A program made the translations under genes and the position numbers. From the NCBI GenBank assembly GCA_031277475.1, contig JAITMJ010000067.1, forward strand, positions 2,107 to 66,106: a DNA stretch of 64,000 bases, in the 5' to 3' direction. The notes under the pieces were generated by a model. It made no database searches and was not told the origin of the DNA. It saw only the letters and a list, made by a program, of their open reading frames with translations. This stretch comes from Flavobacteriaceae bacterium (GTDB lineage Bacteria; Bacteroidota; Bacteroidia; Flavobacteriales; Weeksellaceae). The first letter of the stretch is position 1, and each line of letters starts with the position of its first letter. Shown one piece after another: positions 10,214-25,057 of this stretch.

Positions 10214-10229
10214 TGTTTCACGTGAAACA
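10214..10229. promoter_or_regulatory. parS (ParB/Spo0J binding site), perfect 16-bp palindrome TGTTTCACGTGAAACA
   Basis: Exact match to the canonical parS consensus TGTTNCACGTGAAACA. It lies 8 bp downstream of the mnmG stop. Confidence 0.8.
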
Positions 10230-10236
10230 TTTTAGA

Positions 10237-12099
10237 TTATCGCCCCAAATAAACCAATAAAACATTGATGTCTGCTGGAGAAACACCACTGATTCGCGAT
10301 GCTTGTGCGATGGTTTTGGGTTTTATGTTGTTCAGTTTTTGTTTGGCTTCGGAGGACAGGGAAAATATTTTTGTGTAGTCAAAATTCTCGGGAATTTTTA
10401 TGTTTTCCATTCGGTTTTGTTTCGCCACACTTTCCTGCTCTTTCTCGATGTAGCCCTTGTATTTGATGTTGATTTCCACTTGTTCCCGAATTTCTTCGGA
10501 ATATTGATTTACTTTTTCACCAATGATTTCAATTTTAGAAAGTTTCTCCAAATTAATGTTCGGTCGGGTTAAAAATTGCGAAGCGCGATATGCTTGATCC
10601 ACAGGATTGCTTTCGTTTTCTTCGAGAATCGGGTTTATGATTCCGGGTTTCAAAGAAAGTCCACCGAGAAAAGATTCTAATTCTTCGCTTTTTTTAATTT
10701 TTTCTTCTGCCTTTTTCATTCGATTTTCTTTTGCCAATCCCAAATTAAACGATTTTTCCGTCAAGCGAATGTCTGCATTATCTTGCCTCAAAATAAGCCG
10801 AAATTCCGCACGAGAGGTGAACATTCTGTACGGTTCTTCAGTTCCTTTTGTGATGAGATCGTCAATCAAAACGCCGATATACGCCTCGTTTCGGTTTAAT
10901 GTAAATTCTTCTTTTTCGTAAATTTTGTTGTGAGCGTTAATTCCCGCAATCAAACCTTGTCCTGCGGCTTCTTCATAACCTGTCGTTCCGTTGATTTGTC
11001 CGGCAAAAAACAGGTTTTCAATAAGTTTTGTTTCGAGTGTGTGTTTCAGTTGCGTTGGCGGAAAATAATCGTATTCTATCGCGTAGCCCGGACGAAAAAT
11101 TTTAGCATTTTCAAAACCCGGAATTTGTTTGATTGCCTTTGTTTGAACGTCTTCGGGAAGCGATGTACTGAAACCGTTCACATAGATTTCGATGGTTTTC
11201 CAACCTTCCGGCTCTACAAAAATTTGATGCCGATTTCTCTCCGAAAATCTATTGATTTTATCTTCAATACTTGGGCAATATCTCGGACCGATACTTTGAA
11301 TGGTTCCATTAAACATCGGACTTCTGTCGAATCCCGAACGCAAAATTTCGTGGACGTTTTCGTTCGTATAAGTGATGTGGCAACTCTTTTGTTCCGTGAG
11401 TTTCGGTGTGTCTGAATAACTGAATTTCTGCGGATTTTCGTCGCCTTTTTGTTCTTCCATTTTGGAATAATCAAGGCTTCTTCCGTCCACACGAGGCGGC
11501 GTTCCGGTTTTCATTCTTCCCGCGTCAAAACCCAAAGAAACCAACTGTTCCGTGATTCCGAAAGCGCGCGGTTCGCCCATTCTTCCGCCACCGAATTGTT
11601 TATCGCCGACGTGAATTAATCCGTTCAAAAAAGTTCCGTTGGTCAGAATTACGGATTTTCCTTTAATTTCAATTCCCATCGCCGTAACCACGCCCGCAAC
11701 TTTATGATTCTCAACGATTAATCCTTTAACCATATCTTGAAAAAAGTCGAGATTTGGGGTGTTTTCGAGGGCAAATCTCCATTCTGTAGCGAACGACATT
11801 CTGTCGTTTTGTGTTCTCGGCGACCACATTGCCGGACCTTTTGAACGGTTCAGCATTTTAAATTGTATTGCGGATTTGTCGGCAACAATTCCCGAAAAAC
11901 CGCCCATCGCATCAATTTCTCGAACAATCTGCCCTTTTGCAATTCCGCCCATTGCCGGATTGCAACTCATTTGTCCGATGGTTTGCATATTCATCGTTAT
12001 CAAAAGCGTTTTCGAGCCAAGATTTGCCGCTGCTGCCGCCGCTTCACAGCCGGCGTGTCCGCCGCCAACAACGATAACATCATATATTTCGGAAATCAT
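10237..12099 (-). CDS. mnmG: tRNA uridine-5-carboxymethylaminomethyl(34) synthesis enzyme MnmG (GidA)
   Basis: 620 aa with an FAD-binding N-terminus VIVVGGGHAGCEAAAAAANLG, MSCNPAMGG, and a conserved GidA core and C-terminal domain. Confidence 0.97.
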   Translation of the reverse strand: MISEIYDVIVVGGGHAGCEAAAAAANLGSKTLLITMNMQTIGQMSCNPAMGGIAKGQIVREIDAMGGFSGIVADKSAIQFKMLNRSKGPAMWSPRTQNDRMSFATEWRFALENTPNLDFFQDMVKGLIVENHKVAGVVTAMGIEIKGKSVILTNGTFLNGLIHVGDKQFGGGRMGEPRAFGITEQLVSLGFDAGRMKTGTPPRVDGRSLDYSKMEEQKGDENPQKFSYSDTPKLTEQKSCHITYTNENVHEILRSGFDRSPMFNGTIQSIGPRYCPSIEDKINRFSERNRHQIFVEPEGWKTIEIYVNGFSTSLPEDVQTKAIKQIPGFENAKIFRPGYAIEYDYFPPTQLKHTLETKLIENLFFAGQINGTTGYEEAAGQGLIAGINAHNKIYEKEEFTLNRNEAYIGVLIDDLITKGTEEPYRMFTSRAEFRLILRQDNADIRLTEKSFNLGLAKENRMKKAEEKIKKSEELESFLGGLSLKPGIINPILEENESNPVDQAYRASQFLTRPNINLEKLSKIEIIGEKVNQYSEEIREQVEINIKYKGYIEKEQESVAKQNRMENIKIPENFDYTKIFSLSSEAKQKLNNIKPKTIAQASRISGVSPADINVLLVYLGR

Positions 12100-12132
12100 T
12101 TTTTTGTTTATGTTTTTAATATTTTATGTGGA

Positions 12133-12148
12133 TGTTTCACGTGAAACA
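12133..12148. promoter_or_regulatory. parS (ParB/Spo0J binding site), second perfect copy TGTTTCACGTGAAACA
   Basis: Identical 16-mer located 34 bp upstream of the mnmG start, between ybeY and mnmG. It is preceded by TTATGTGGAT, a 7/9 DnaA-box-like word. Confidence 0.8.
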
Positions 12149-12217
12149 TTTGTTAGACAAAGAGAAAAAAGATTAAAGACAAAAGACGCTAAATCCTTGT
12201 CGAAAGGGCTTTAATGT

Positions 12218-12649
12218 CTATTTTTCCTTGTCCAAAACGGATTGATATTTGCTTAAATAAAAATCTTCTTTATCTCGCATTTCTTTTTGTTCGGTTTCCG
12301 AAAGGTCTTTATATCCGCAGAGATGTAGAATGCCGTGAGCCAAAACCCGCCTTAATTCTTCGTCGAAATTTTTGGAAAGCAAAGATGCGTTCTCGGAAAT
12401 GCGGGGCAAAGATACGAAAATATCGCCGCTTATATTTTTCCCGTCAACATAATCAAAAGTGATAATGTCTGTATAATAATCGTGTTCGAGGTAATCTTGA
12501 TTGATTTTAAGCAAATATTCATCATCACAAAAAATATAATTAATCTCGCCCAACTTTTTTCCTTCGGAAACAATTAAATTCTTCAGCCAAATTTTAATAT
12601 TCGGACGAAAAGAAATTTTTTCGATATTTTCAAAATGAAAGTGTATCAT
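12218..12649 (-). CDS. ybeY: rRNA maturation RNase YbeY
   Basis: 143 aa with the zinc-binding motif HGILHLCGYKD typical of YbeY. Confidence 0.93.
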   Translation of the reverse strand: MIHFHFENIEKISFRPNIKIWLKNLIVSEGKKLGEINYIFCDDEYLLKINQDYLEHDYYTDIITFDYVDGKNISGDIFVSLPRISENASLLSKNFDEELRRVLAHGILHLCGYKDLSETEQKEMRDKEDFYLSKYQSVLDKEK

Positions 12650-12653
12650 TGTT

Positions 12654-13772
12654 TTAAATTACAAAATCTCGAAAATTGTTTTGGTTGATTAAACGAATAT
12701 CGGAATTGTAAGAATTGGTGAACGTCTTCGGAATTTTTAATTTTGAATTAGAACCCCACTTAATTTCATAGCCGAAGATTTTTCCGTTAAAATCTTCAAT
12801 ATAGTCAATTTCCTGCTGCTGTCGAGTTCGCCAAAAAAAAGATTTTGTCAGAAGAAGTTCGTTGTTAATTTTCTTTAATCTTTCGGAAATTAAAAAATTT
12901 TCCCAAAGTTTCCCCACATCTTCCCTGGTTTCAATGTGGTTTAGGTTTCCAATAATGATGTTCCGAATCCCGTTGTCCCAAAAATATATTTTTTGATTAT
13001 TTTTTATCTCATTTCTCAAATTTCGGCTAAAACTCGGCAGTTTAAAGATAATATAATTCTGCACGCACAAATCAATATAGTTGCTTACGGTTTTCACATC
13101 TACGGAAAGAAGTTTGGAAAGTTCGTTGTAACTCACTTCGCCGCCGACTTGATAAGCCAAAGCCTTGAGCAGATTTTCCAAAATTTCAGGTTTTCTGATG
13201 CCCGAAAAATTTAGAATGTCTTTATAAAGATAACTTTCGGCGAGTTGTTTTAATATTTCATATTCGTTTCCAAAATTATTGATAACTTCGGGATACATGC
13301 CGTAAACAATGCGCAAATTCAGTTGTTGTTGAGATTTCAGATATCCTTGGTTTTCTTCAAATTCTTTCCACGAAATGGGCAAAAGAAGATATTCCCATTT
13401 TCTTCCGGTCAGACTTTCCTGCATCAAATTATTGATTTCAAAAGCAGAGGAACCGCTTGCAAAAATTTGGATATTTTTTATTTGATCGGCAATAATTTTT
13501 AAGGTAATGCCGATGTTTTCTATTCTTTGTGCTTCGTCAATGAAAGCAAAACTATATCCGTTCAAAAGATTTTTCAGTTCTTCTGTGTTTATATTTGCAA
13601 GAATTCTCCGAACAGCCGGATCATCACCATTTAGAAATAAAACGTTTTTTTTGTTTTTCAAAATATCCTGAATAAGGGTTGTTTTCCCCACTTGTCTCGC
13701 CCCAACGAGAATGATGATTTTTCCGGAATTAATATTCGATTCTAAAATTTTTTGTAAATCTCTTTTAATCAT
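12654..13772 (-). CDS. AAA family ATPase with DUF4143-type C-terminal region
   Basis: Walker A GARQVGKTT and Walker B-like FAFIDEAQ. I prefer the ATG at 13772 (MIKRDLQKILE). Confidence 0.85.
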   Translation of the reverse strand: MIKRDLQKILESNINSGKIIILVGARQVGKTTLIQDILKNKKNVLFLNGDDPAVRRILANINTEELKNLLNGYSFAFIDEAQRIENIGITLKIIADQIKNIQIFASGSSAFEINNLMQESLTGRKWEYLLLPISWKEFEENQGYLKSQQQLNLRIVYGMYPEVINNFGNEYEILKQLAESYLYKDILNFSGIRKPEILENLLKALAYQVGGEVSYNELSKLLSVDVKTVSNYIDLCVQNYIIFKLPSFSRNLRNEIKNNQKIYFWDNGIRNIIIGNLNHIETREDVGKLWENFLISERLKKINNELLLTKSFFWRTRQQQEIDYIEDFNGKIFGYEIKWGSNSKLKIPKTFTNSYNSDIRLINQNNFRDFVI

Positions 13773-13818: not shown

Positions 13819-13922
13819 ATAATCCACAAATGTTATGTTTTTTATGGAACATAATCCATAAATGTTATGTTTTTTTATGGAATATAATCCATAAATGTTA
13901 TGTTTTTTATGGGATACAATCT
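13819..13922. repeat. tandem direct repeat, 3.2 copies of a 32-33-bp unit ATAATCCA(C/T)AAATGTTATGTTTTTT(T)ATGG(A/G)A(A/C/T)
   Basis: Units lie at 13819-13850, 13851-13883 and 13884-13915, with a partial unit at 13916-13922. Each unit contains the inverted arms CCATAAA / TTTATGG. There are no spacers. Confidence 0.9.
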
Positions 13923-16298: not shown

Positions 16299-16650
16299 TC
16301 ACGGAAAAATATATTTGGAATGATTAGTATCTCCTTCATTTATAAGTAATTTTATTTCTGTCAATTCGGACAAATCTCGGCGTGCTGTTCTATCTGAAAC
16401 GTTATATTTTGCTGCGTATTCCGAACTTGTTATTTCGCCTTTTTCTTTAAAAAACAATAGGGCGTCAATTTGCCTTTCATTCAATCCTAATTTGCTCAAA
16501 TCTTCTTTATTGTATATATCTTTGCGGAAAACAGTCCAAAAATCGTTGCCTTTGCAGGAAAATTGAGGAACGGGAATATTGGCTTCAAGGCAGAGATTTT
16601 TCATTTTGTCCACACCGCGCCCCCAAGATTCTACATAACCGCTTCGGAAA
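16299..16650 (-). pseudogene. 3-prime remnant of an AlbA_2/HATPase_c_4-type putative regulator with C-terminal winged-HTH
   Basis: Only about the last 115 codons are present (..GYVESWGRGVDKMKNLCLEANIPVPQF .. ITSSEYAAKYNVSDRTARRDLSELTEIKLL). Full-length relatives are several-fold longer. Similarity stops at an in-frame TAG inside repeat copy 2. Confidence 0.6.
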
Positions 16651-16682
16651 TTTGTATTCTATGTTTTGGGATTCGGGCATAA
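16651..16682 (+). repeat. 32-bp perfect direct repeat, copy 2
   Basis: Identical to 16208-16239. It ends one base before the stop codon of the 91-aa gene. Confidence 0.95.
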
Positions 16683-16958
16683 TTATTCTTCTTTAATGGT
16701 TTTTAATGCGTCAGCCATTGCCTGCAATTTATCCACATCCTTTTCATTGAAAATAAATTCGTCCCAATGTCCATATTTACAACGGTAACCGAAAATATAT
16801 TTTAATCCATATTTTAATCGCCTCCAAAAACCACGTTGGGTAAGATGAATGCTTAAATATATCATTTTATCGTCTTCATCGTAATGAACTAAGATTTGAT
16901 GTTCGCTGCTATGACAACGGCAAAGCAGGATTTCTGTTTCTTCAAGTTTTCGTTTCAT
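16683..16958 (-). CDS. hypothetical small Cys/His-rich protein (91 aa)
   Basis: Its ATG lies 15 bp downstream of the Type IIG stop on the same strand. The translation is MKRKLEETEILLCRCHSSEHQILVHYDEDD ... YRCKYGHWDEF. I recognise no family. Confidence 0.6.
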   Translation of the reverse strand: MKRKLEETEILLCRCHSSEHQILVHYDEDDKMIYLSIHLTQRGFWRRLKYGLKYIFGYRCKYGHWDEFIFNEKDVDKLQAMADALKTIKEE

Positions 16959-16973
16959 ATATTTGGTGGTATT

Positions 16974-19900
16974 TTACTTTTCAATTATTTTAACCTCCTC
17001 CTCCGTCAACCCATACAACGCATAAACCAACCCATCAATCTCCTTATCCGTTGCTGAAATTTCAGCAGAAAGTTTGTTACATTCCGTTTTATATTCGTTA
17101 AAATAATCTTCCCATTCATCTTGTTGTTTAAGTGATAAGGCAAGGGGTTTAAACCCCTTGTTTGGTTTTTTCAATTCGACAAGGAATTGCGCAAAATCCA
17201 ATTTGTCGAAAGTTTCGAGTGCTTTGGTTATGACAGGGGGATTAATCCCCTTGTTAGTAGTGCCTGCAAAATTATCTGCCAATCTTCGCAAAAATTTTTG
17301 GCGTTTGGTTTGTAAACTAACAGACAAGTTTGCCCTATTTTTTGCCAATGGAACAAATTGTTCCTGAATTTCTTTTGGTGCTTTATAAATATATGTGTTT
17401 TGCAAATTTGGTGCAGAATACAATAAATATCCGCCCGACATTCTTAATCCATCAAACAAACATTCAAAAGTATAATTATACAATTTGGAATTTAACCAAC
17501 ACAAAACATATTCAGGCATAAAATCTTTATTGAAAGAGTGTATGCAATTTGTATTGATTGAGGCATATTCGCCAAATTCATCATAAAAAGATTCACAAGT
17601 TAATCCGATTTTAGCGATAATTATTTTTGAAGATGAGTATAATTTATGTCTATTTGAAGAAATTATATTTGAATCTTTTGGCAAAAATGGGTTCAAATAT
17701 TTTTTGCCTTTATCTACTAAATACGAAATTCCCCAATTATTGGAATAATCGTCAATTGTTCCTGTATTTATCAATTTATAACCTTCTATTTCATTGATTA
17801 AAGAAGAATAATCGTCTGCTTCTTTTGCCGTTGAAGTGGCATTTATCAAACCAACCTCTTTTAACGAGCAACTTTTTGCAATGACTTTTTGTGTAATTGG
17901 TAACTTATCGTTCAAAAGAAATCCCCATATAGAATCGTCAATCAAAGAAAGTTTATCTGAATTTGTTTTTTGAACAATCAGTTCTTTTGTTATTTCGTCA
18001 AACTTTCCACATTCAATTTCGTAAGACGAATTATTTTCGTTGTTTTTTAGAAATGTAATTACAGGATATGTTGAGGCATCGGGAAATACTTTTTTGTCTG
18101 AATAATCAATTAGTTGATACAAACAAAAATCAGTTTTTATAAATTCTCTCAATGCTAATCCATAACTCGCAGACAAAAAACGATTTGGAGTAATGTAAGA
18201 TAAACAGCCCGTTTTATTCATTAGCCATAATCCCCTTTCAAAGAAATAGATATATAAATCTACTGTTCCTTTTGCTGTAAAATAGTTATCTTTAAGATAA
18301 TTATATTCTTTTTCCGAATAAGTTTTTTTCAATTCAATTGCATTCACATACGGCGGATTTCCAATCACCACATCAAAGCCGCCTTTATATTCGGGGCGGA
18401 AAGCGTGTTCGATTGTACTGACAAGGGGATGAATCCCCATGTTATAGACGGAGAGATCAAGCGGTGGAAGTTCGTGTTTTATGCGGTTGTTTTCTATATA
18501 TTCTATCGTGTTGTAAAGTTGCTCATTATTCGTAATCTCCTTATAACCAAATTTTTGTGTCCAAAATGGCACACTACGTTCACCCTCTTTTTTGACAAGG
18601 GGATTAATCCCCTTGTTCTGGTTGCAAGCACGAGCCGTTCGACCTTTTATTTTTTTTACAATTTTATCTAATTCCTCTTCTTCACAAACCAAAAGAATAT
18701 GCAAATGGTCCCGACAGATATTATATGCCAACACATTTAAACCATCTTCTTTGACAATTTCGGCAATGGTTTTTGTAATAATAATTTCATCCTCCTCTGT
18801 CATAAATTGTGGGTCTGCATAGGCAAGGGGATTAATCCCCTTGTTATACTTGGCGCGCATCTCTCTCACTTTGTAATCAATCATTCGTTGTGAAGTTCGG
18901 CTATCGTGAATAGCCGTAGTAACGTGAAACGCTTTTTTGTCTTTTTGTTTAAACACTTGCGGAAATTCTTTGTGCCAATCGAAGGCTTTTTCGATTTCTT
19001 CTATTCCCTCTGACAAGGGGTTTAAACCCCTTGTTAAACCTCTTGCCGTTGGTGCAATCAATGAATTTCCACATTTTATATTGTGGCTCAGCGAGTTGAG
19101 TTTTCGGTTCGGTTTTGCAGTTCGCAACCACAACGAAAGTCGGGCAATTTCTACACTTTCGTCGTTTATATCCACGCCGTAAAGGTTGTTTTCCAAAATG
19201 GCGTTTTCGATATTTGGAAAAACAATGCTGCTATCCAACAATTTTGCCGTCATCTCGTCAATCAACTTATGCTCTGTCATCAGGAAGTCAAGCGCGGCGT
19301 TGAGAAAAGCACCACTTCCGCACGCGGGGTCGCAAATAGTAAGCGAGAGTAGCCACGAGCGGTAAGTTTCGAGTTTGTCGTTCAGTTTCTTCTTGGTTTC
19401 TTTTTGTCGTTTTTTATCAGCAAAATATTCCTGTTCGTCAATTTCGAGTTCTGCTTTTTTGTCGGCACAAAGTTTACCGATTGTATTTTCCACAATATAA
19501 GCCGTAATGTAACGCGGAGTGTAGAAAACGCCATCTTTTTTGCGTTTTGAAATTTTCTCTTTCTCTGACAAGGGGTTTAACAAGGGGTTTAAACCCCTTG
19601 TTAATTCCGCAGAAATTTCCTCAATCTCAGTCAGCGAATTTTCAAAAATATGTCCGAGAATATTGACATCTATTTCACTTTTGAAATCGTAATCGGCAAG
19701 TTTTAAAGAATGTTTACGCAAAATTTCGTCGGAAACTACAATATTGTCGAGTATTTCATCGGGCTCAAAAAGTCCGCCGTTGTAGGCAAAAATATCGTGT
19801 TTTTTGCCTTTGTATCCGGTGTTTAAGTAACCAAAATATTTTTTGAAACGCTCGTAAAGTGGAAAATAAGCATCGTTATCTTTAAGCAATTCCCATTGTT

Positions 19901-20699
19901 TTATAATTTCTACAACGGAATTTGGCGGAAGCAAATCGCCGTCTTCGGCAAAGAAAATAAAGAGTAAGCGGTCGAGCAATTTTTGCGTTTTTTTGAATAA
20001 AACAAGGGCATCGACACCAACATCAACAAGGGGATTAATCCCCTTGTTATGCTCTTTCATATCGGCAAACAAATCGCGTTTAAAATTTGAATAATCTTTG
20101 TAAAGTTGGCGAGTAATTTGGTCTTCTTTGCTTACCGATTCGTTTTTCAGTTGTTTTGGCAAATTCGCAGCGATATTTTCGTAAGCCAAGCAAATCCACA
20201 ACAGTGCAAAATCATTTTCCGAGAGTGTAAAAAGATTAAATTCCACAAAATCAATCGTATTCTCAATGTAAAACCGTAATTTCTCAAAATTGGAAATCAC
20301 AACATACGAGGCTTTTCTGTGGTTGTTTTTATAGCCAAAAGCCTGTGTTTCAATGTTTTTTAGGTCGGATGTTTTTGTATCTTTCAGTTCAATCACGCCA
20401 ATCACTTCGCCATTAACCAAAATTGCGCCATCGGCTTTTTTGGAGTTGGTTTCATTTTTTTGTTCGGTAATAAGGTTGAAATTTGGAGTCGGATTGAGTG
20501 TATAACCCAATATTTTTACAAACAATTCACGCAAAAATCCTTCTTGAAATTGTTCTTCTTTTGAATTTCGGATATTTTCTTGAATAGTAACATCTTGAAA
20601 ATAAGCAACATACAATTTATATGCAATAGTGATTTTACCCGCGTTAGCGGCCATTTGCTTTTTTAAAATGGTATGTTGAAAGAGGCTCAAAATAGACAA
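16974..20699 (-). CDS. MmeI/Eco57I-like single-chain Type IIG restriction endonuclease / N6-adenine DNA methyltransferase, carrying an in-frame HUH-transposase insert and eight in-frame palindromic elements
   Basis: Landmarks in order: PD-(D/E)XK nuclease (ADGAILVNGEVIGVIELKDTK), LLFIFFAED, FYTPRYI, motif I ICDPACGSGAFL, CGNSLI, FDWHKEFPQVF, motif IV GGFDVVIGNPPYV, a TaqI_C-like specificity region, and the tail IDGLVYALYGLTEEEVKIIE. The 1241 codons are uninterrupted. Confidence 0.9.
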   Translation of the reverse strand: MSILSLFQHTILKKQMAANAGKITIAYKLYVAYFQDVTIQENIRNSKEEQFQEGFLRELFVKILGYTLNPTPNFNLITEQKNETNSKKADGAILVNGEVIGVIELKDTKTSDLKNIETQAFGYKNNHRKASYVVISNFEKLRFYIENTIDFVEFNLFTLSENDFALLWICLAYENIAANLPKQLKNESVSKEDQITRQLYKDYSNFKRDLFADMKEHNKGINPLVDVGVDALVLFKKTQKLLDRLLFIFFAEDGDLLPPNSVVEIIKQWELLKDNDAYFPLYERFKKYFGYLNTGYKGKKHDIFAYNGGLFEPDEILDNIVVSDEILRKHSLKLADYDFKSEIDVNILGHIFENSLTEIEEISAELTRGLNPLLNPLSEKEKISKRKKDGVFYTPRYITAYIVENTIGKLCADKKAELEIDEQEYFADKKRQKETKKKLNDKLETYRSWLLSLTICDPACGSGAFLNAALDFLMTEHKLIDEMTAKLLDSSIVFPNIENAILENNLYGVDINDESVEIARLSLWLRTAKPNRKLNSLSHNIKCGNSLIAPTARGLTRGLNPLSEGIEEIEKAFDWHKEFPQVFKQKDKKAFHVTTAIHDSRTSQRMIDYKVREMRAKYNKGINPLAYADPQFMTEEDEIIITKTIAEIVKEDGLNVLAYNICRDHLHILLVCEEEELDKIVKKIKGRTARACNQNKGINPLVKKEGERSVPFWTQKFGYKEITNNEQLYNTIEYIENNRIKHELPPLDLSVYNMGIHPLVSTIEHAFRPEYKGGFDVVIGNPPYVNAIELKKTYSEKEYNYLKDNYFTAKGTVDLYIYFFERGLWLMNKTGCLSYITPNRFLSASYGLALREFIKTDFCLYQLIDYSDKKVFPDASTYPVITFLKNNENNSSYEIECGKFDEITKELIVQKTNSDKLSLIDDSIWGFLLNDKLPITQKVIAKSCSLKEVGLINATSTAKEADDYSSLINEIEGYKLINTGTIDDYSNNWGISYLVDKGKKYLNPFLPKDSNIISSNRHKLYSSSKIIIAKIGLTCESFYDEFGEYASINTNCIHSFNKDFMPEYVLCWLNSKLYNYTFECLFDGLRMSGGYLLYSAPNLQNTYIYKAPKEIQEQFVPLAKNRANLSVSLQTKRQKFLRRLADNFAGTTNKGINPPVITKALETFDKLDFAQFLVELKKPNKGFKPLALSLKQQDEWEDYFNEYKTECNKLSAEISATDKEIDGLVYALYGLTEEEVKIIEK
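17141..17160. repeat. REP-like perfect palindrome, TTTAAA type (CAAGGGGTTTAAACCCCTTG)
   Basis: Self-complementary 20-mer, read as NKGFKPLA in the host ORF. Confidence 0.95.
17232..17255. repeat. REP-like palindrome, ATTAAT type, one substitution
   Basis: GACAGGGGGATTAATCCCCTTGTT, read as NKGINPPV. Confidence 0.9.
18420..18443. repeat. REP-like palindrome, degenerate ATTAAT type (two substitutions), at the distal junction of the transposase insert
   Basis: GACAAGGGGATGAATCCCCATGTT, read as NMGIHPLV. Confidence 0.8.
18595..18616. repeat. REP-like perfect palindrome, ATTAAT type (ACAAGGGGATTAATCCCCTTGT), inside the transposase domain
   Basis: Self-complementary 22-mer, read as NKGINPLV between the IKGR and FWTQ motifs. 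Confidence 0.95.
18824..18843. repeat. REP-like perfect palindrome, ATTAAT type (CAAGGGGATTAATCCCCTTG), inside the transposase domain
   Basis: Self-complementary 20-mer, read as NKGINPLA between the first Y1 motif and HUH. Confidence 0.95.
19013..19046. repeat. REP-like perfect palindrome, TTTAAA type (ACAAGGGGTTTAAACCCCTTGT), plus adjacent degenerate half site
   Basis: The full copy is at 19013-19034 and the half-site-like TTAAACCTCTTG at 19035-19046. Together they are read as ARGLTRGLNPLS. Confidence 0.9.
19569..19601. repeat. REP-like perfect palindrome, TTTAAA type, plus duplicated half site
   Basis: The plus strand reads CAAGGGGTTTAA + CAAGGGGTTTAAACCCCTTGT, translated as TRGLNPLLNPL. 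Confidence 0.9.
20025..20048. repeat. REP-like perfect palindrome, ATTAAT type, longest copy (AACAAGGGGATTAATCCCCTTGTT)
   Basis: Self-complementary 24-mer, read as NKGINPLV. Confidence 0.95.
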
Positions 20700-20765: not shown

Positions 20766-23213
20766 TCAACTCTTCACATAAATCCGTTTCACGCGTCTCG
20801 AAATGGAGGTTAGAACTTCGTAAGGTATTGTTTTACAATATTCTGCAAACTCTTCCAACGTTGGTTTTGAGTTGAAAAGAATCACCTCGTCGCCTTCTTT
20901 TGCATCCGGATTTCTGAGATCTATCATCATCATATCCATACAAACGTTCCCGACAATCGGTGCCAAATGTCCGTTTATGCCTACATTTCCGCGTTTATTT
21001 CCGATTAATCTCGGAATGCCGTCGGCGTAACCAACAGGAATTGTGGCGATTAAGGTTTTTTCGGCGGCTCGAAATTTTCGGTTGTAGCCCACAGAATCGC
21101 CGCTTGAAATTTCCGAAATCTGCGAAATCACCGTTTTAAAACAAACCGCATTTTGAAGTTGATTTTTAATCTCGGAACTGCTCGAAACGCCGACCATTCC
21201 TATGCCAATTCGCACCATATCAAATTGATAATCAACGAAATTCGTGATTCCCGAGGAATTGAGAATGTGCCGAATCGGTTTGTAATTTAAACCCGAAATC
21301 AGTTTTTCCGAATTTTCCTCGAAACGTTTGATTTGGCTCAACGTATAATCGCGCTCCAAAACGTCGTCTGCCGAGGAAAGATGACTGAAAACCGACTTCA
21401 CTTCCACATTGCAATTTTTCAGTTTTCGGGCGAGTTCGTCAATCTCAAAACCTTGAAAACCAAGCCGATGCATTCCTGTTTCCAATTTGATGTGGATGGG
21501 ATATTTTCCGCTGAATCCTTTTTGTTTCAGTTGTTCCTCAAAAAGTTCCAAAACGCGAAAACTGTAAATTTCAGGCTCGAGATTGTAGTCGATAATCGCG
21601 TTGTAACTGTGTTGTTCGGGATTCATCACCATTATCGGAACCGTGATTCCATTTTTTCGCAAATCTACGCCTTCATCGGAATACGCAACTCCCAGATAAT
21701 CAATATGATGATGCTGTAAAAACTCCGCAATTTCATAGCCGCCCAAACCGTAGGAATAGGCTTTCACCATTGCCATCATTTTGGTTTCGGGTTTCAGCAA
21801 AGCCTTATGAACATTGATGTTGTGGAGAATTGCGTTTAAATTGACCTCCAAAACGGTGTCGTGTTTTTGGAGTTCGAGTTCGGTTTTTACTTTTTCGATT
21901 TCAAATTTTCTCGCGCCTTTCAAGAGAACCAATTCGTTTTCAATTTGGTTAATGATTTGATTTTTAATGAATTGCTCCGTATTATCGAAAGTAAAAGTTT
22001 CGGTTTTGAAAAGGCGAGCGTATTTTGTGATTTCCGCGCCGATTAAAATAATTTTGTCGAAATGCTGTTCGTTGGTCAGTTCGGCGACTTCGCGATAAAG
22101 TTCTTCGGGATTTTTAGATTCGACAAAATCTGTGATAATCAGCGTTTTTTTCGGTTTGTTGTATTCTTTTATAAACTGAAAAGCGATGGACAAAGAATCC
22201 AAATCGAGGTTAAAAGAATCGTTGATAATCAAATTGTTGCGAACGCCGTTCACGCTTTCCAACCGCATTTCCACAGATTTCAGCGCATTGATTTTTTCTA
22301 CCGCTTTTTGATTTTCAAAACCGAAAAACTTCAAAATCGAAAGCACACAAAGTGCGTTGCTCAGCGTTGCTTCATCCCTTTGCTGAACGGGAAACGAGAT
22401 TTCTTCACCAAAAAAATCAACCGTAATGTCAATGTTTCTGTTGCCCCAATCGGATTTCAAGAAAACATCATTCCAAGGGTTCAATCCGTAGGAAATCAAG
22501 TTTTTATCTGAAAACTTTTGTTTTATTTTATTGAAAACCAACATATTATCTCCATTAAAAATAATGCTTTCCGAATCTTTAAACAGCAATATTTTTTCAT
22601 CAATTAATTCTTCTTCGTTTTTAAAATTTGCGGCGTGAGCAGAACCGATGTGCGTTAAAACCCCGATTCTCGGCTGAAAAATCCCTTCCAATTTTTCCAT
22701 TTCGCCGGGTTTTGAAATCCCGACTTCGAAAATTCCCAAATTATGATTTCCATTGATTTGCAGAAGCGAAAGCGGCAGCCCCAACTGCGAATTGAAACTT
22801 TTCGGGCTTTTCACGATTTTGAAATCGTCTGCCAAACTTTGGTAGAGCCATTCTTTCACGATGGTTTTGCCGTTGCTTCCCGTAATTCCGATGGTTTTCA
22901 GGTCGGGAAATTGCCGCAGATGAAACGTTGCCAGCCGATGCAAAAAATCTATGGAATTTTTAGTGATGATTTGTGTAACATTCTCAAAATCAGGGAAATA
23001 TTTTTCGGAAATAATGATGCCGATTCCTTTTTCAATGGCAGACGGAATATATTTTTCCCCCGAATTTTTTGAAGTTCGGATTGCCAAAAACGCCGTTTTA
23101 TTCGCAGAATAGATGTTCCTGCTGTCGAAAGCGATATTTTTTACTTGAAGTTCGGGATTTCCAAAAACTTCAGAATCGGTGATTTCTGCGAGTTGTTTTG
23201 CGGTGTAGTTCAT
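20766..23213 (-). CDS. bifunctional UDP-N-acetylmuramoyl-tripeptide--D-alanyl-D-alanine ligase / alanine racemase
   Basis: The N-terminal half is a Mur ligase (GITGSNGKT). The C-terminal half is an alanine racemase (PLP-Lys context MVKAYSYGLG). I prefer the ATG at 23213 (MNYTAKQLAEI), which removes the overlap with uvrC. Confidence 0.93.
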   Translation of the reverse strand: MNYTAKQLAEITDSEVFGNPELQVKNIAFDSRNIYSANKTAFLAIRTSKNSGEKYIPSAIEKGIGIIISEKYFPDFENVTQIITKNSIDFLHRLATFHLRQFPDLKTIGITGSNGKTIVKEWLYQSLADDFKIVKSPKSFNSQLGLPLSLLQINGNHNLGIFEVGISKPGEMEKLEGIFQPRIGVLTHIGSAHAANFKNEEELIDEKILLFKDSESIIFNGDNMLVFNKIKQKFSDKNLISYGLNPWNDVFLKSDWGNRNIDITVDFFGEEISFPVQQRDEATLSNALCVLSILKFFGFENQKAVEKINALKSVEMRLESVNGVRNNLIINDSFNLDLDSLSIAFQFIKEYNKPKKTLIITDFVESKNPEELYREVAELTNEQHFDKIILIGAEITKYARLFKTETFTFDNTEQFIKNQIINQIENELVLLKGARKFEIEKVKTELELQKHDTVLEVNLNAILHNINVHKALLKPETKMMAMVKAYSYGLGGYEIAEFLQHHHIDYLGVAYSDEGVDLRKNGITVPIMVMNPEQHSYNAIIDYNLEPEIYSFRVLELFEEQLKQKGFSGKYPIHIKLETGMHRLGFQGFEIDELARKLKNCNVEVKSVFSHLSSADDVLERDYTLSQIKRFEENSEKLISGLNYKPIRHILNSSGITNFVDYQFDMVRIGIGMVGVSSSSEIKNQLQNAVCFKTVISQISEISSGDSVGYNRKFRAAEKTLIATIPVGYADGIPRLIGNKRGNVGINGHLAPIVGNVCMDMMMIDLRNPDAKEGDEVILFNSKPTLEEFAEYCKTIPYEVLTSISRRVKRIYVKS

Positions 23214-23263
23214 GGCGAGATTCAAAGGTAAAGATTTTTTTAGAATCGAAAAGCCCAAAATCC

Positions 23264-25057
23264 TCAGCCTGCCGCAAAATATTCCCAAATTATTTTGGCT
23301 TTCTTTTTCCCGACGATTTCTTCTAATGTCGCGAGTTCAGCTTCTTTGATGCGCTTCACGGATTTTAATTTTTGCAAAAGCAATTCGACTGTTTTTTCGC
23401 CAACGCCGGAAATATCTTCCAATTCGGATTGCAAGGTTGCGTTTTTTCTTCTGGTTTGATGGTGTTTCACGCCGAATCTGTGGGCTTCGTCTCGCACGCG
23501 CTGCAAGATTTTCAGCGTTTCGGATTTTTTATCCAAATAAAGCGGAACCGAATCTTCCGGAAAATAGAGTTCTTCCAAGCGTTTTGCAATTCCGATAATG
23601 GTGATTTTCCCGTAGATTCCGAGCAATTTCAAACTTTTTACGGCAGACGAAAGTTGGCCTTTTCCGCCGTCGATTAAAATCAGTTGCGGAAGTTCGCCGT
23701 CTTCCTCTAAAATTCGGGAATATCGCCGCAAAATTACTTCTTCCATCGTTGCAAAATCATTGGCACCGACCACCGTTTTCGGATGAAAAATTCGATAATC
23801 GTCTTTGCTCGGTTTTCCGTCTTTGAAAACCACACACGCCGAAACGGGATTGGTTCCTTGAATATTGGAATTGTCAAAACCCTCGATATGTCGCGGTTCC
23901 ACAGGCATTCTCAAAAGTTTTTGCATTTCCGCCATAATTCTGTTCGTGTGCCGATCCGGATCTATGATTTGAATTTGCTTTAATTTTTCCAAACGGTATT
24001 CTTTGGCGTTTTTTTCGGAGAGTTCCACGATTCTTTTTTTGTCGCCCATTTTCGGAACAAAAGTTTTTATATTCGGAATTTCTACGGAAATGGGGAACGG
24101 CAGAAGGATTTCTTTAGAATCCGAATTGAATTTTCGGCGAATTTCCACCATTGTTTTTTCCAAAATATCCTCGTCGGTTTCCGCCAAAACTTTCTTGATT
24201 TCCGTGGTGTAACTTTGGATGATGTTTCCGTTTCGGATTTTAAAAAAATTCACATAAGCCGAGGTTTCATCGCTCGTCATTCCGAAAACATCCACATCGT
24301 CAATATTCGGATTTACGACGGTGTGTTTTGCCTGATAATCTTCCAACGCCTCCAAACGTTCCTTCACAAAATGGGCGTTTTCAAACTCCAATTTTCCCGA
24401 ATACAGCAGCATTTCTTCCGTTAAATATTTTTTCGCCGGAGCAAAATCGCCTTTGATGATTCCGCGAATGGCATCTATATTTTTATCGTAGTTTTCCTTT
24501 GTTTCCAACCCTTCGCAAGCACCGTTGCAATTTTTGATGTGATATTCCAAACAGACTTTGTATTTTTTTTCGGCAATTTTTTCGGGCGCGAGATTTAGGT
24601 TGCAAGTTCGGATTTTGTATATGTTTTTAATGATTTCCAATAAAATTTTTGCGGGTCTCACTTTGGCGTAAGGTCCGTAGTATTCCGAGCCGTCTTTTAT
24701 GATTTTTCTGGTGAGGAAAATTCGCGGAAAGGCTTCATTTTTAATGCAAATCCACGGAAAAGATTTGTCGTCTTTCATCATAATATTGTAGAGCGGCTGA
24801 TATTCTTTGATGAGATTATTTTCCAAAAGAAGCGCATCATATTCGCTGGGAACAATCGTGGTTTCCAAGCGGTGAATTTTCCGTACCATAATTTGGATTC
24901 GATATCCCGAAAGATTTTTATTGAAATACGAAAGCACTCGTTTTTTCAAATCTTTGGCTTTCCCGACGTAGAGCAAATCACCGTTTTTATTGTAGTAGCG
25001 GTAAACTCCGGGTTCGGAAGGCAGCGTTTTGAGTTGGAGTTCGAGTTCGGGATTCAT
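23264..25057 (-). CDS. uvrC: excinuclease ABC subunit C
   Basis: 597 aa with a GIY-YIG N-terminus (GVYRYYNKNGDLLYVGKA), a UvrB-interacting region, an endonuclease domain and a C-terminal HhH (GVGEKTVELLL). Confidence 0.97.
   Translation of the reverse strand: MNPELELQLKTLPSEPGVYRYYNKNGDLLYVGKAKDLKKRVLSYFNKNLSGYRIQIMVRKIHRLETTIVPSEYDALLLENNLIKEYQPLYNIMMKDDKSFPWICIKNEAFPRIFLTRKIIKDGSEYYGPYAKVRPAKILLEIIKNIYKIRTCNLNLAPEKIAEKKYKVCLEYHIKNCNGACEGLETKENYDKNIDAIRGIIKGDFAPAKKYLTEEMLLYSGKLEFENAHFVKERLEALEDYQAKHTVVNPNIDDVDVFGMTSDETSAYVNFFKIRNGNIIQSYTTEIKKVLAETDEDILEKTMVEIRRKFNSDSKEILLPFPISVEIPNIKTFVPKMGDKKRIVELSEKNAKEYRLEKLKQIQIIDPDRHTNRIMAEMQKLLRMPVEPRHIEGFDNSNIQGTNPVSACVVFKDGKPSKDDYRIFHPKTVVGANDFATMEEVILRRYSRILEEDGELPQLILIDGGKGQLSSAVKSLKLLGIYGKITIIGIAKRLEELYFPEDSVPLYLDKKSETLKILQRVRDEAHRFGVKHHQTRRKNATLQSELEDISGVGEKTVELLLQKLKSVKRIKEAELATLEEIVGKKKAKIIWEYFAAG

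Follow-up and report, generated by a model that had tools for sequence, protein, structure and literature searches.

A RAYT-like Y1/HUH domain nested in a Type IIG restriction-modification enzyme, with REP hairpins in the same gene

The Flavobacteriaceae bacterium contig JAITMJ010000067.1 (assembly GCA_031277475.1) was analyzed over a stretch of 64,000 nucleotides, hereafter the window. On its reverse strand, this stretch contains a restriction-modification (RM) gene that is predicted to encode a single-chain Type IIG (Eco57I/MmeI-like) enzyme with all RM motifs intact. Nested in this otherwise complete enzyme is a segment that sequence and fold comparisons identify as a whole Y1/HUH tyrosine transposase of the RAYT (REP-associated tyrosine transposase) type, with predicted catalysis. 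The same gene carries eight copies of a repetitive extragenic palindrome (REP), and the physical association of gene and REP in the window, in 80 metagenomic loci, and in a locus with a stand-alone relative (L213) indicates that this REP is cognate to this Y1 clade. We lean toward the explanation that the RAYT domain acts on the REP hairpins of its own gene and rides with the mobile RM gene. The component parts, that is, the Type IIG RM enzyme, the RAYT, and REPs in RAYT genes and in other genes, are already known. What is apparently undescribed is a whole RAYT nested in an RM catalytic domain, the large size of the family, and the colonization of the host open reading frame (ORF) by REPs.

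The nested Y1/HUH domain and its host enzyme

The RM ORF is intact, and its product is 100% identical to P0001, a protein from the metagenome-assembled genome (MAG) Flavobacteriaceae bacterium. The PADLOC profile REase_MTase_IIG matches it with an E value of 1e-247, the match being split at aa 585/772, and Pfam finds Eco57I (4.6e-46) in two stretches around the insert, as well as MmeI_Mtase, N6_Mtase, and HSDR_N. TaqI_C scores 30.2 (cut-off, 26.5); the MmeI_N and MmeI_hel matches are below their cut-offs. An initial annotation, made from the sequence alone, had described the host as a single-chain Type IIG enzyme, and these results bear it out; all the motifs and coordinates that it cited (D90/E104/K106, motif I, NPPY, HLH, and Y734) were reproduced. 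The nuclease residues D90, E104, and K106 lie at 20382-20432; no homologue in the alignment (A1) departs from D90 or K106, and E104 is nearly invariant. S-adenosylmethionine motif I, DPACGSGAFL (19302-19337), and GNPPY (NPPY at 18348-18359) are intact and are invariant or nearly so in the same alignment. The insert separates two halves of the methyltransferase (MTase) that adjoin directly in ordinary MTases, as seen in the alignment with CamA and in 105 insert-less homologues. The organization of the gene is as follows (TRD, target-recognition domain; AF2, AlphaFold2).

16974..20699, minus strand: intact RM ORF with nested RAYT-like domain, 1241 aa (ORF call, Pfam, PADLOC)
20055..20699, minus strand: N-terminal PD-(D/E)XK nuclease domain, aa 1-215 (Pfam HSDR_N, MmeI_N)
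19767..19991, minus strand: MmeI_hel helical spacer domain, aa 237-311 (Pfam)
18948..19553, minus strand: N-terminal half of the MTase, aa 383-584, with FYTPRYI, motif I DPACGSGAFL, CGNSLI, and FDWHKEFPQVF (Pfam, alignment)
18387..18947, minus strand: complete nested Y1/HUH RAYT-like domain, 187 codons, aa 585-771 (DNA alignment with P0002 and P0005; Pfam; NCBIfam; AF2/Foldseek)
18060..18386, minus strand: C-terminal half of the MTase with motif IV GGFDVVIGNPPY, aa 772-880 (Pfam, alignment, CamA comparison)
17340..18059, minus strand: target-recognition region (TRD), including TaqI_C at aa 1006-1081 (Pfam, identity comparison)
16974..17339, minus strand: conserved C-terminal helical tail, aa 1121-1241 (alignment)

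DNA alignment with two insert-less homologues, P0002 (in locus L214) and P0005 (in L215), shows that the insert is exactly 561 nt long. Across the insertion point, both of these genes read CCGCAGGTGTTTGAA directly followed by AAAGGCGGG, that is, FPQVFE followed by KGGFD. With FPQVF on one side and GGFDVVIGNPPY on the other, the domain occupies the loop that precedes motif IV and keeps the frame of the host; it lacks its own start and stop codons, the ORF being open throughout. In these respects the initial annotation was right: it had placed a complete in-frame Y1/HUH domain, without its own start or stop codon, ahead of motif IV, and the profile match, the fold, and the aligned HUH and Tyr residues agree with this. 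Its limits of 18420-18929 covered the correct region and were slightly too narrow, since the alignment with insert-less homologues sets the junctions at 18387-18947.

The Pfam profile Y1_Tnp (PF01797) matches aa 632-738 (E = 4e-12), with 46.8 bits in the whole protein and 50.7 bits in the insert alone (cut-off, 23). In NCBIfam, the top match of the insert is REP_Tyr_transpos (57.5 bits; equivalog cut-off, 80), followed by transpos_IS200 (33.4 bits; cut-off, 55). The AF2 model of the insert, built on 22 relatives, has a mean pLDDT (predicted local distance difference test) of 80.4, and its best 29 Foldseek matches in the PDB are all Y1 transposases (ISDra2, RAYT 4ER8, IS608, and IS200), with probability 1.0 and target-normalized template modeling (TM) scores of 0.54 to 0.66. 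H665-L-H667 forms the HUH motif (18699-18707); the model places the catalytic Tyr734 (18498-18500) on the predicted helix 142-158. All 22 fused and stand-alone sequences compared share D-H-x-H, the Tyr, W-x-Q-K, and, toward the N terminus, SR-S-RM without exception, and their alignment yields DH[LMV]H, W[TA]Q, and YIENNR.KH for the clade. The fused segment aligns with stand-alone proteins of ~190 aa from the first residue to the last, indicating that a whole protein, and no fragment, has been captured.

The same architecture is found in many other genomes. PF01797 is present at the same site in 15 of the 120 best full-protein homologues (1100 to 1330 aa), and the remaining 105, without the insert, are ~1000 to 1030 aa long. 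With the Y1 alignment as its seed, a scan of metagenomes gave 340 relatives; among the best 80 of these, which are the 80 loci referred to below, ~75 are fused, with the Y1 domain at aa 550-648 of ORFs of 1150 to 1370 aa. A library of representatives at 50% identity gave 373 relatives of the insert, and at least 52 of the best 149 clusters inspected are fused, with the flanking RM motifs present. The fused genes come from dozens of independent assemblies, stand in unrelated genomic contexts, and share 44 to 83% identity. In 10 allele pairs, the ratio of nonsynonymous to synonymous substitutions (dN/dS) is 0.04 to 0.19 in the Y1 segment and 0.035 to 0.11 in the N-terminal part of the RM protein. 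Such recurrence at one site in homologues, metagenomic loci, and clusters, together with purifying selection, points to an old, widespread, and selectively maintained family of Bacteroidota and not to a private insertion. The same evidence, along with the intact ORF, makes it highly improbable that the gene is a recent accidental insertion, a dead pseudogene, or an assembly chimera confined to this genome, an idea that has the unusual architecture in its favor and nothing further.

Of the two options offered in the initial annotation, the first, that a transposase has inserted into this particular gene, does not survive these counts. The second, a domesticated protein with three activities, is closer to the widespread fusion under purifying selection that is seen here, the third activity being a prediction. 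The annotation had also stated that no RM enzyme of this architecture was known. Literature searches likewise returned no description of a RAYT/HUH fusion to an RM or Type IIG enzyme; public databases, however, already hold many members of the family under generic automatic names, some of them tagged "RM methylase / RayT".

The window gene is a mosaic. Its N-terminal part and Y1 domain share 78 to 83% identity with several fused homologues, whereas its MTase C-terminal part and TRD are 96% and 90% identical, respectively, to those of the insert-less P0002 and only 16 to 48% identical to those of the same fused homologues. The target-recognition region (17340..18059) shows only 16 to 21% identity to most other fused homologues. 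This pattern is consistent with the TRD swapping that is usual for the Type IIG class. In a neighbor-joining tree of 204 Y1 sequences, most fused domains fall into two large clades and a few are scattered; this tree is too rough for counting fusion events, and many of its "stand-alone" entries may be gene fragments.

Two further observations concern the fused genes. In 6 of the 10 allele pairs (among L134-L202), the synonymous divergence of the Y1 segment is 2 to 3 times below that of the RM N-terminal part, possibly owing to a DNA-level constraint or to more recent exchange of Y1 segments between alleles. The homologue P0012, from a Bacteroidales MAG, has a second nested domain at aa 553-658, a DUF559/Vsr-like endonuclease (Pfam, 1e-33). 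The loop that holds it is the site of a REP in the window protein (aa 556-562) and seems to be a hot spot for in-frame passengers.

REP hairpins in the fused genes

The cognate REP is a 24-bp hairpin unit, AACAAGGGG-N6-CCCCTTGTC. A scan of the window with AAGGGG[A/T]TTAA[T/A]CCCCTT, allowing up to 3 mismatches, finds 8 copies (at 17142, 17235, 18423, 18597, 18825, 19015, 19582, and 20028), with 0.02 expected by chance. Every copy is in frame inside the fused RM-Y1 ORF; by position alone, the chance of all 8 falling there is 1.3e-10. The initial annotation had noted a degenerate palindrome at the distal junction of the insert, 18420-18443; it is real, with 2 mismatches, and is one of the eight copies along the ORF and not a feature of the junction alone. 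As single-stranded DNA (ssDNA), the window REPs fold into hairpins of 8 to 10 bp with -5 to -10 kcal/mol, and -12.4 kcal/mol for the copy with a duplicated arm. The units are as follows.

20025..20048: REP unit 1 (HNKGINPLV), linker between nuclease and helical domain (palindrome, DNA alignment, folding)
19563..19602: REP unit 2 with a 12-nt duplicated arm (TRGLNPLLNPLS), linker between helical domain and MTase; the extra arm is at 19563-19580, beside the unit (palindrome, alignment, folding)
19012..19035: REP unit 3 (TRGLNPLS), loop after CGNSLI (palindrome, alignment, folding)
18822..18845: REP unit 4 (NKGINPLA), Y1 loop 1, low pLDDT (palindrome, folding, AF2 model)
18594..18617: REP unit 5 (NKGINPLV), Y1 loop between the HUH and Tyr motifs (palindrome, alignment, folding)
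18420..18443: REP unit 6, degenerate, 2 mismatches (NMGIHPLV), near the C-terminal end of Y1 (palindrome, folding)
17232..17255: REP unit 7 (NKGINPPV), after the TRD (palindrome, alignment, folding)
17139..17162: REP unit 8 (NKGFKPLA), C-terminal tail (palindrome, alignment, folding)

Within Y1, the REP-encoded peptides fall in three low-pLDDT loops. An Rfam scan of 18 palindrome-bearing loci found no family at the hairpin, and a full-text literature search for the repeat sequences matched no paper.

The REPs are strongly concentrated in the genes that encode the Y1 domain. In the 80 loci, 247 copies are found in Y1-encoding ORFs (263 kb) and 12 outside them (627 kb), a 49-fold difference in density, and 7 of the 12 outside copies belong to one array that abuts the stop codon of a gene (in L158). 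That array (12025-12667) consists of seven tandem 107-nt repeats with one REP each; it is noncoding, starts from the stop codon of the RM-Y1 gene, and has a repeat unit that incorporates the last ~20 nt of this gene. Three loci that were fetched via their proteins have 4 to 10 REPs in the gene and none in the 10-kb flanks, and the two insert-less loci, L214 and L215, contain no copies. At the protein level, REP-encoded peptides are present in 11 of the 15 fused homologues and in none of the 105 insert-less ones (Fisher p = 1e-12). A simple decay of REP number with distance from the RAYT segment agrees poorly with 48 complete genes, which hold 19 REPs in their last 300 nt and none in the 75 kb immediately downstream; the small number of independent sites limits the force of this comparison. 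Recurrent sites number about 10 and include two interdomain linkers, the loop after CGNSLI, three Y1 loops, and two sites in the C-terminal tail; a few TRD loops are used in some lineages only.

Several features indicate that the REP is a hairpin element of the DNA and not a peptide motif. On the gene strand, its consensus is (C/T)AA-CAAGGGG-N6-CCCCTTG-TCA, and this same DNA is read in two frames, as NKGxxPLV (141 copies) and as TRGxxPL (107 copies), the third frame being usually closed by TAA. The arms covary: the variable inner positions 7/12 and 8/11 form Watson-Crick pairs in 97% and 99% of the copies, with four and two pair types, respectively (shuffles, 0.32 and 0.51). The single strand folds as described above, and the codon choice (AAG GGG ... 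CCC CTT) is fixed in genomes that are AT-rich. A protein-level motif of the KGINPL type, with incidental palindromy of the DNA, would agree with the high conservation of KGINPL at one loop of the stand-alone proteins; it is nevertheless very unlikely in view of the two unrelated peptides encoded by one DNA, the fixed codons, the covarying arms, and the noncoding arrays of the same sequence around the L213 gene and after the L158 gene.

The stand-alone relatives (~190 aa) are single genes in conserved housekeeping synteny, e.g., in Fluviicola taffensis. Most of them keep exactly one REP, encoded by AAGGGGATTAATCC(C/T)CTT, in the loop between HUH and Tyr, which is the same loop as that of unit 5 in the window (18594-18617). 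In L213 (9858-12495), a stand-alone Y1 gene, P0197 (236 aa), has a classical REPtron-like RAYT layout, with 3 upstream REPs (loop TT) and at least 10 inverted downstream REPs (loop AA, ~40-nt doublets); inside the gene there are in-frame REP copies, both intact and decayed (QQGGKPPCSMQDS repeats). A scan of species genomes for the palindrome, which gives at least 120 stretches, finds the 22-nt palindrome dispersed in cyanobacteria, Chloroflexi, Ignavibacteria, and Bacteroidota, mostly in intergenic regions, the loops CTTAAG and TTGCAA dominating in the first three groups. Occasionally it occurs in frame in housekeeping genes, namely those for HypF of Pseudanabaena, a thiolase of a Flavobacteriales MAG, and an E2 acyltransferase of a Binatia MAG, in the last case in the linker. 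No Y1 gene was found within the 8-kb stretches around the in-frame palindromes in housekeeping genes (L019, L039, L057, and L065).

REPs differ between closely related genes. Between the window gene and the insert-less P0002, every indel of at least 9 nt is located at a REP unit, in its immediate flank, or at the Y1 domain; in comparisons with insert-less relatives, the sole exception is a 9-nt difference at the start codon. Close fused alleles differ by the presence or absence of whole units, as in the clean case of the 24-nt unit AACAAGGGGATTCATCCCCTTGTC in L140 and L141, by tandem 33-nt REP units (up to four), by 12-nt duplications of either arm (the type seen at 19563-19602 in the window), and by the loop sequence at a shared REP site. 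Two candidate roles for this variation found no support. One is that REPs border a swappable TRD cassette: the left homology breakpoint lies after GNPPY, ~20 aa past the last Y1 REP, and on the right side identity decays gradually. REP-driven phase variation by frameshift is seen in only 1 of the 80 loci, and the other broken genes break elsewhere. In that locus (L132, 2335-2365), the point where the RM-Y1 frame shifts coincides with the 3' border of the C-terminal REP; this may be a sequencing error or a REP-associated frameshift.

Possible roles of the RAYT domain

If the RAYT domain acts on the REPs of its own gene, the following scheme can be drawn. The Y1 domain would still be a metal-dependent ssDNA nickase/joiner, would bind the REP hairpins when its gene is single-stranded during replication or transcription, and would seed, duplicate, or delete REP units locally. 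As only two of the REP's three frames are open, selection would retain just those copies that preserve the frame and lie in tolerant loops. As for the RM part, it would work as an ordinary Type IIG enzyme, and the RAYT and its REPs, carried inside an RM gene that is mobile and addictive, would be spread horizontally and stably maintained.

A number of points weigh against this scheme. Its every mechanistic step, including the RAYT activity itself, is an inference. The REP_Tyr_transpos match stays under the equivalog cut-off, the Tyr motif is YIENNR and not Y..xNP, and the foot consensus of the REP, (C/T)AAC, is unlike the GTAG or CGTC of classical REPs. The AF2 model of the MTase with Y1 (471 aa) has a predicted TM score (pTM) of 0.50 and a long low-confidence stretch. 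Replication slippage promoted by the hairpins could produce the tandem units and arm duplications with no catalysis by Y1. The 247 copies occupy only ~10 recurrent sites, so their confinement to the ORF may stem largely from inheritance and horizontal transfer of the gene by itself and not from transposition restricted in cis. Finally, the strong purifying selection on the catalytic residues of a domain that did not copy itself independently would be more easily understood as a benefit to the gene than as pure selfishness.

The last point lends real weight to the tentative alternative that the RAYT domain is exapted, having become an integral, functional component that gives a new kind of Type IIG enzyme its third activity: invariant catalytic residues are found in a domain that is not obviously self-copying. 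Such a domain might nick or recognize hairpins in single-stranded invader DNA, serve as a covalent DNA tether, or remodel its own gene by changing linker lengths or exchanging modules. An old fusion at one fixed site, with invariant catalytic residues and a dN/dS of 0.04 to 0.19, is hard to account for if the domain does not replicate by itself. The location of REPs at domain boundaries, the insertion next to the base-flipping motif IV, and the mosaic gene, which joins a fused-type N-terminal part and Y1 (78 to 83%) to a P0002-type MTase C-terminal part and TRD (90 to 96%), would also suit this role. However, there are apparently complete insert-less homologues that have the same TRD, the homology between alleles breaks after NPPY and not at REPs, and the single frameshift at a REP among the 80 loci gives no sign of REP-based phase variation. 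No hairpin-bearing invader sequence has been identified, and the stand-alone relatives are found in housekeeping and not in defense contexts. It appears rather unlikely that the RAYT domain and the in-gene REPs together form a working device of a new Type IIG class, either for hairpin-specific ssDNA nicking and joining against invaders or for self-editing of the gene's own linkers and modules via REPs; if they did, a cellular role could be assigned to a RAYT for the first time.

Still less probable is an inert passenger, a domain that is kept only so that the MTase folds and that cuts no DNA, with REPs as relics that vary by replication slippage. The ~10 recurrent REP sites common to different lineages, the low-confidence loops that hold the REP-encoded peptides, and the tandem units and 12-nt arm duplications, which are typical slippage products, would all be expected of such relics. 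Selection for foldability alone, however, would not account for the invariant HUH histidines and Tyr over ~40 to 55% sequence divergence, and close alleles show new sites as well as differing loop sequences at orthologous sites. REPs are also strictly absent from the 105 insert-less homologues, which ties REP gain to the presence of Y1.

The cellular role of RAYTs and the way in which REPs are generated and spread are long-standing questions, and RAYT activity is hard to demonstrate in vivo. The fusion family combines a RAYT domain and 5 to 11 cognate hairpins within one 3.7-kb gene that can be cloned whole. Since this gene is compact and REP gain and loss are already visible between close alleles, RAYT action on REPs should be directly testable, and the family could make RAYT/REP biology experimentally tractable. 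The fusion also means that an RM enzyme tolerates a 187-aa domain beside its catalytic NPPY loop, links two classes of selfish or defense DNA elements, and represents a natural HUH-tag joined to a DNA methyltransferase/nuclease. Should the domain prove integral to defense or self-diversification, these enzymes would constitute a new RM subtype.

Neighboring features and comparison with known systems

Directly downstream of the RM gene, after a 15-nt gap, the window has two small ORFs (16299-16958, minus strand), which encode a 91-aa protein without a family match and a 104-aa protein with a DeoR/HTH_11-type winged helix. Upstream is a housekeeping neighbor (20766-23288, minus strand), an 840-aa fusion of a MurF-like Mur ligase and alanine racemase (Pfam). 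Elsewhere, the perfect palindrome (A)TGTTTCACGTGAAACA(T) occurs twice, at 10214-10229 and 12132-12149, ~1.9 kb apart, and may serve as operator of a regulator that binds as a dimer. Just downstream of a patatin/Omp85 gene, at 13841-13862 and 13874-13895, a 22-nt palindrome, TTTATGGAA(C/T)ATAATCCATAAA, is present in two neighboring and almost identical copies.

In the host part of the window protein, the domains follow one another as in the single-chain RM enzymes Eco57I/MmeI and the PglX/BrxX-type methyltransferases: the PD-(D/E)XK nuclease comes first, then the helical spacer, the gamma-type N6A MTase, the TaqI_C-like TRD, and the C-terminal helices. TRD swapping is seen both in these families and in the relatives of the window gene. 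Unlike the ordinary Type IIG/IIL enzymes, its chain is interrupted by a 187-aa foreign domain and by five REP-encoded peptides.

The nested domain shares its fold and the arrangement of HUH and Tyr with the TnpA transposases of the IS200/IS605 family (IS608 and ISDra2; 2VJV and 2XM3), enzymes that recognize ssDNA hairpins. It does not behave like an IS200/IS605 element: it has no ORF with its own start and stop codons, no left or right ends (LE/RE), and no TnpB, and it is present in one copy, with no second Y1 gene within the window. The E. coli TnpA_REP (4ER8) is similar in its HUH/Y1 fold (Foldseek rank 2, probability 1.0), its single copy, and its association with REP hairpins; it differs in its ~14% identity, weak profile match (E = 0.21), other REP and foot, and free-standing form. 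As with inteins and homing endonucleases, a complete enzyme of a mobile element is found in frame inside a host protein and is co-inherited with it. In contrast to inteins, there are no splicing motifs and no sign of excision, and the Y1 domain would be expected to stay in the mature polypeptide.

Intragenic REPs and Rickettsia palindromic elements (Di Nocera et al. 2013, PMC3733652) are likewise in-frame repeats in tolerant loops, sometimes with several copies per gene; the same work defines REP classes by the foot tetranucleotide (GTAG, CGTC). Those repeats form genome-wide families, whereas the copies described here cluster in the gene for the cognate transposase domain; none occurs in the ~60 kb that surround it in the window, and most flanks of the other loci lack them.

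Another close comparison is with RAYT subclass 2.4 (Quentin et al. 2018, PMC6006769), equivalent to RAYT group 4 of Bertels. Its members come from Cyanobacteria, Bacteroidetes, and scattered phyla, a distribution with which the dispersed 22-nt palindromes of the species-genome scan agree, and its RAYT genes contain in-frame REPs; over-long "fusion" proteins were discarded from that analysis. Single-copy Y1 HUH proteins of ~190 aa are common to both groups, as is an in-frame REP, here in the stand-alone relatives and in the window domain. The published motifs of subclass 2.4 are NH[IFV]H, WQ, and YIxNNP, and its REP foot is GT[AG]G, whereas this clade has DH[LMV]H, W[TA]Q, and YIENNR.KH, which are partly subclass 1.2-like, and the foot YAAC; judged by the published motifs only, the clade mixes features of subclasses 1.2 and 2.4. 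Unlike the members of subclass 2.4, the window RAYT is wholly nested in an RM enzyme.

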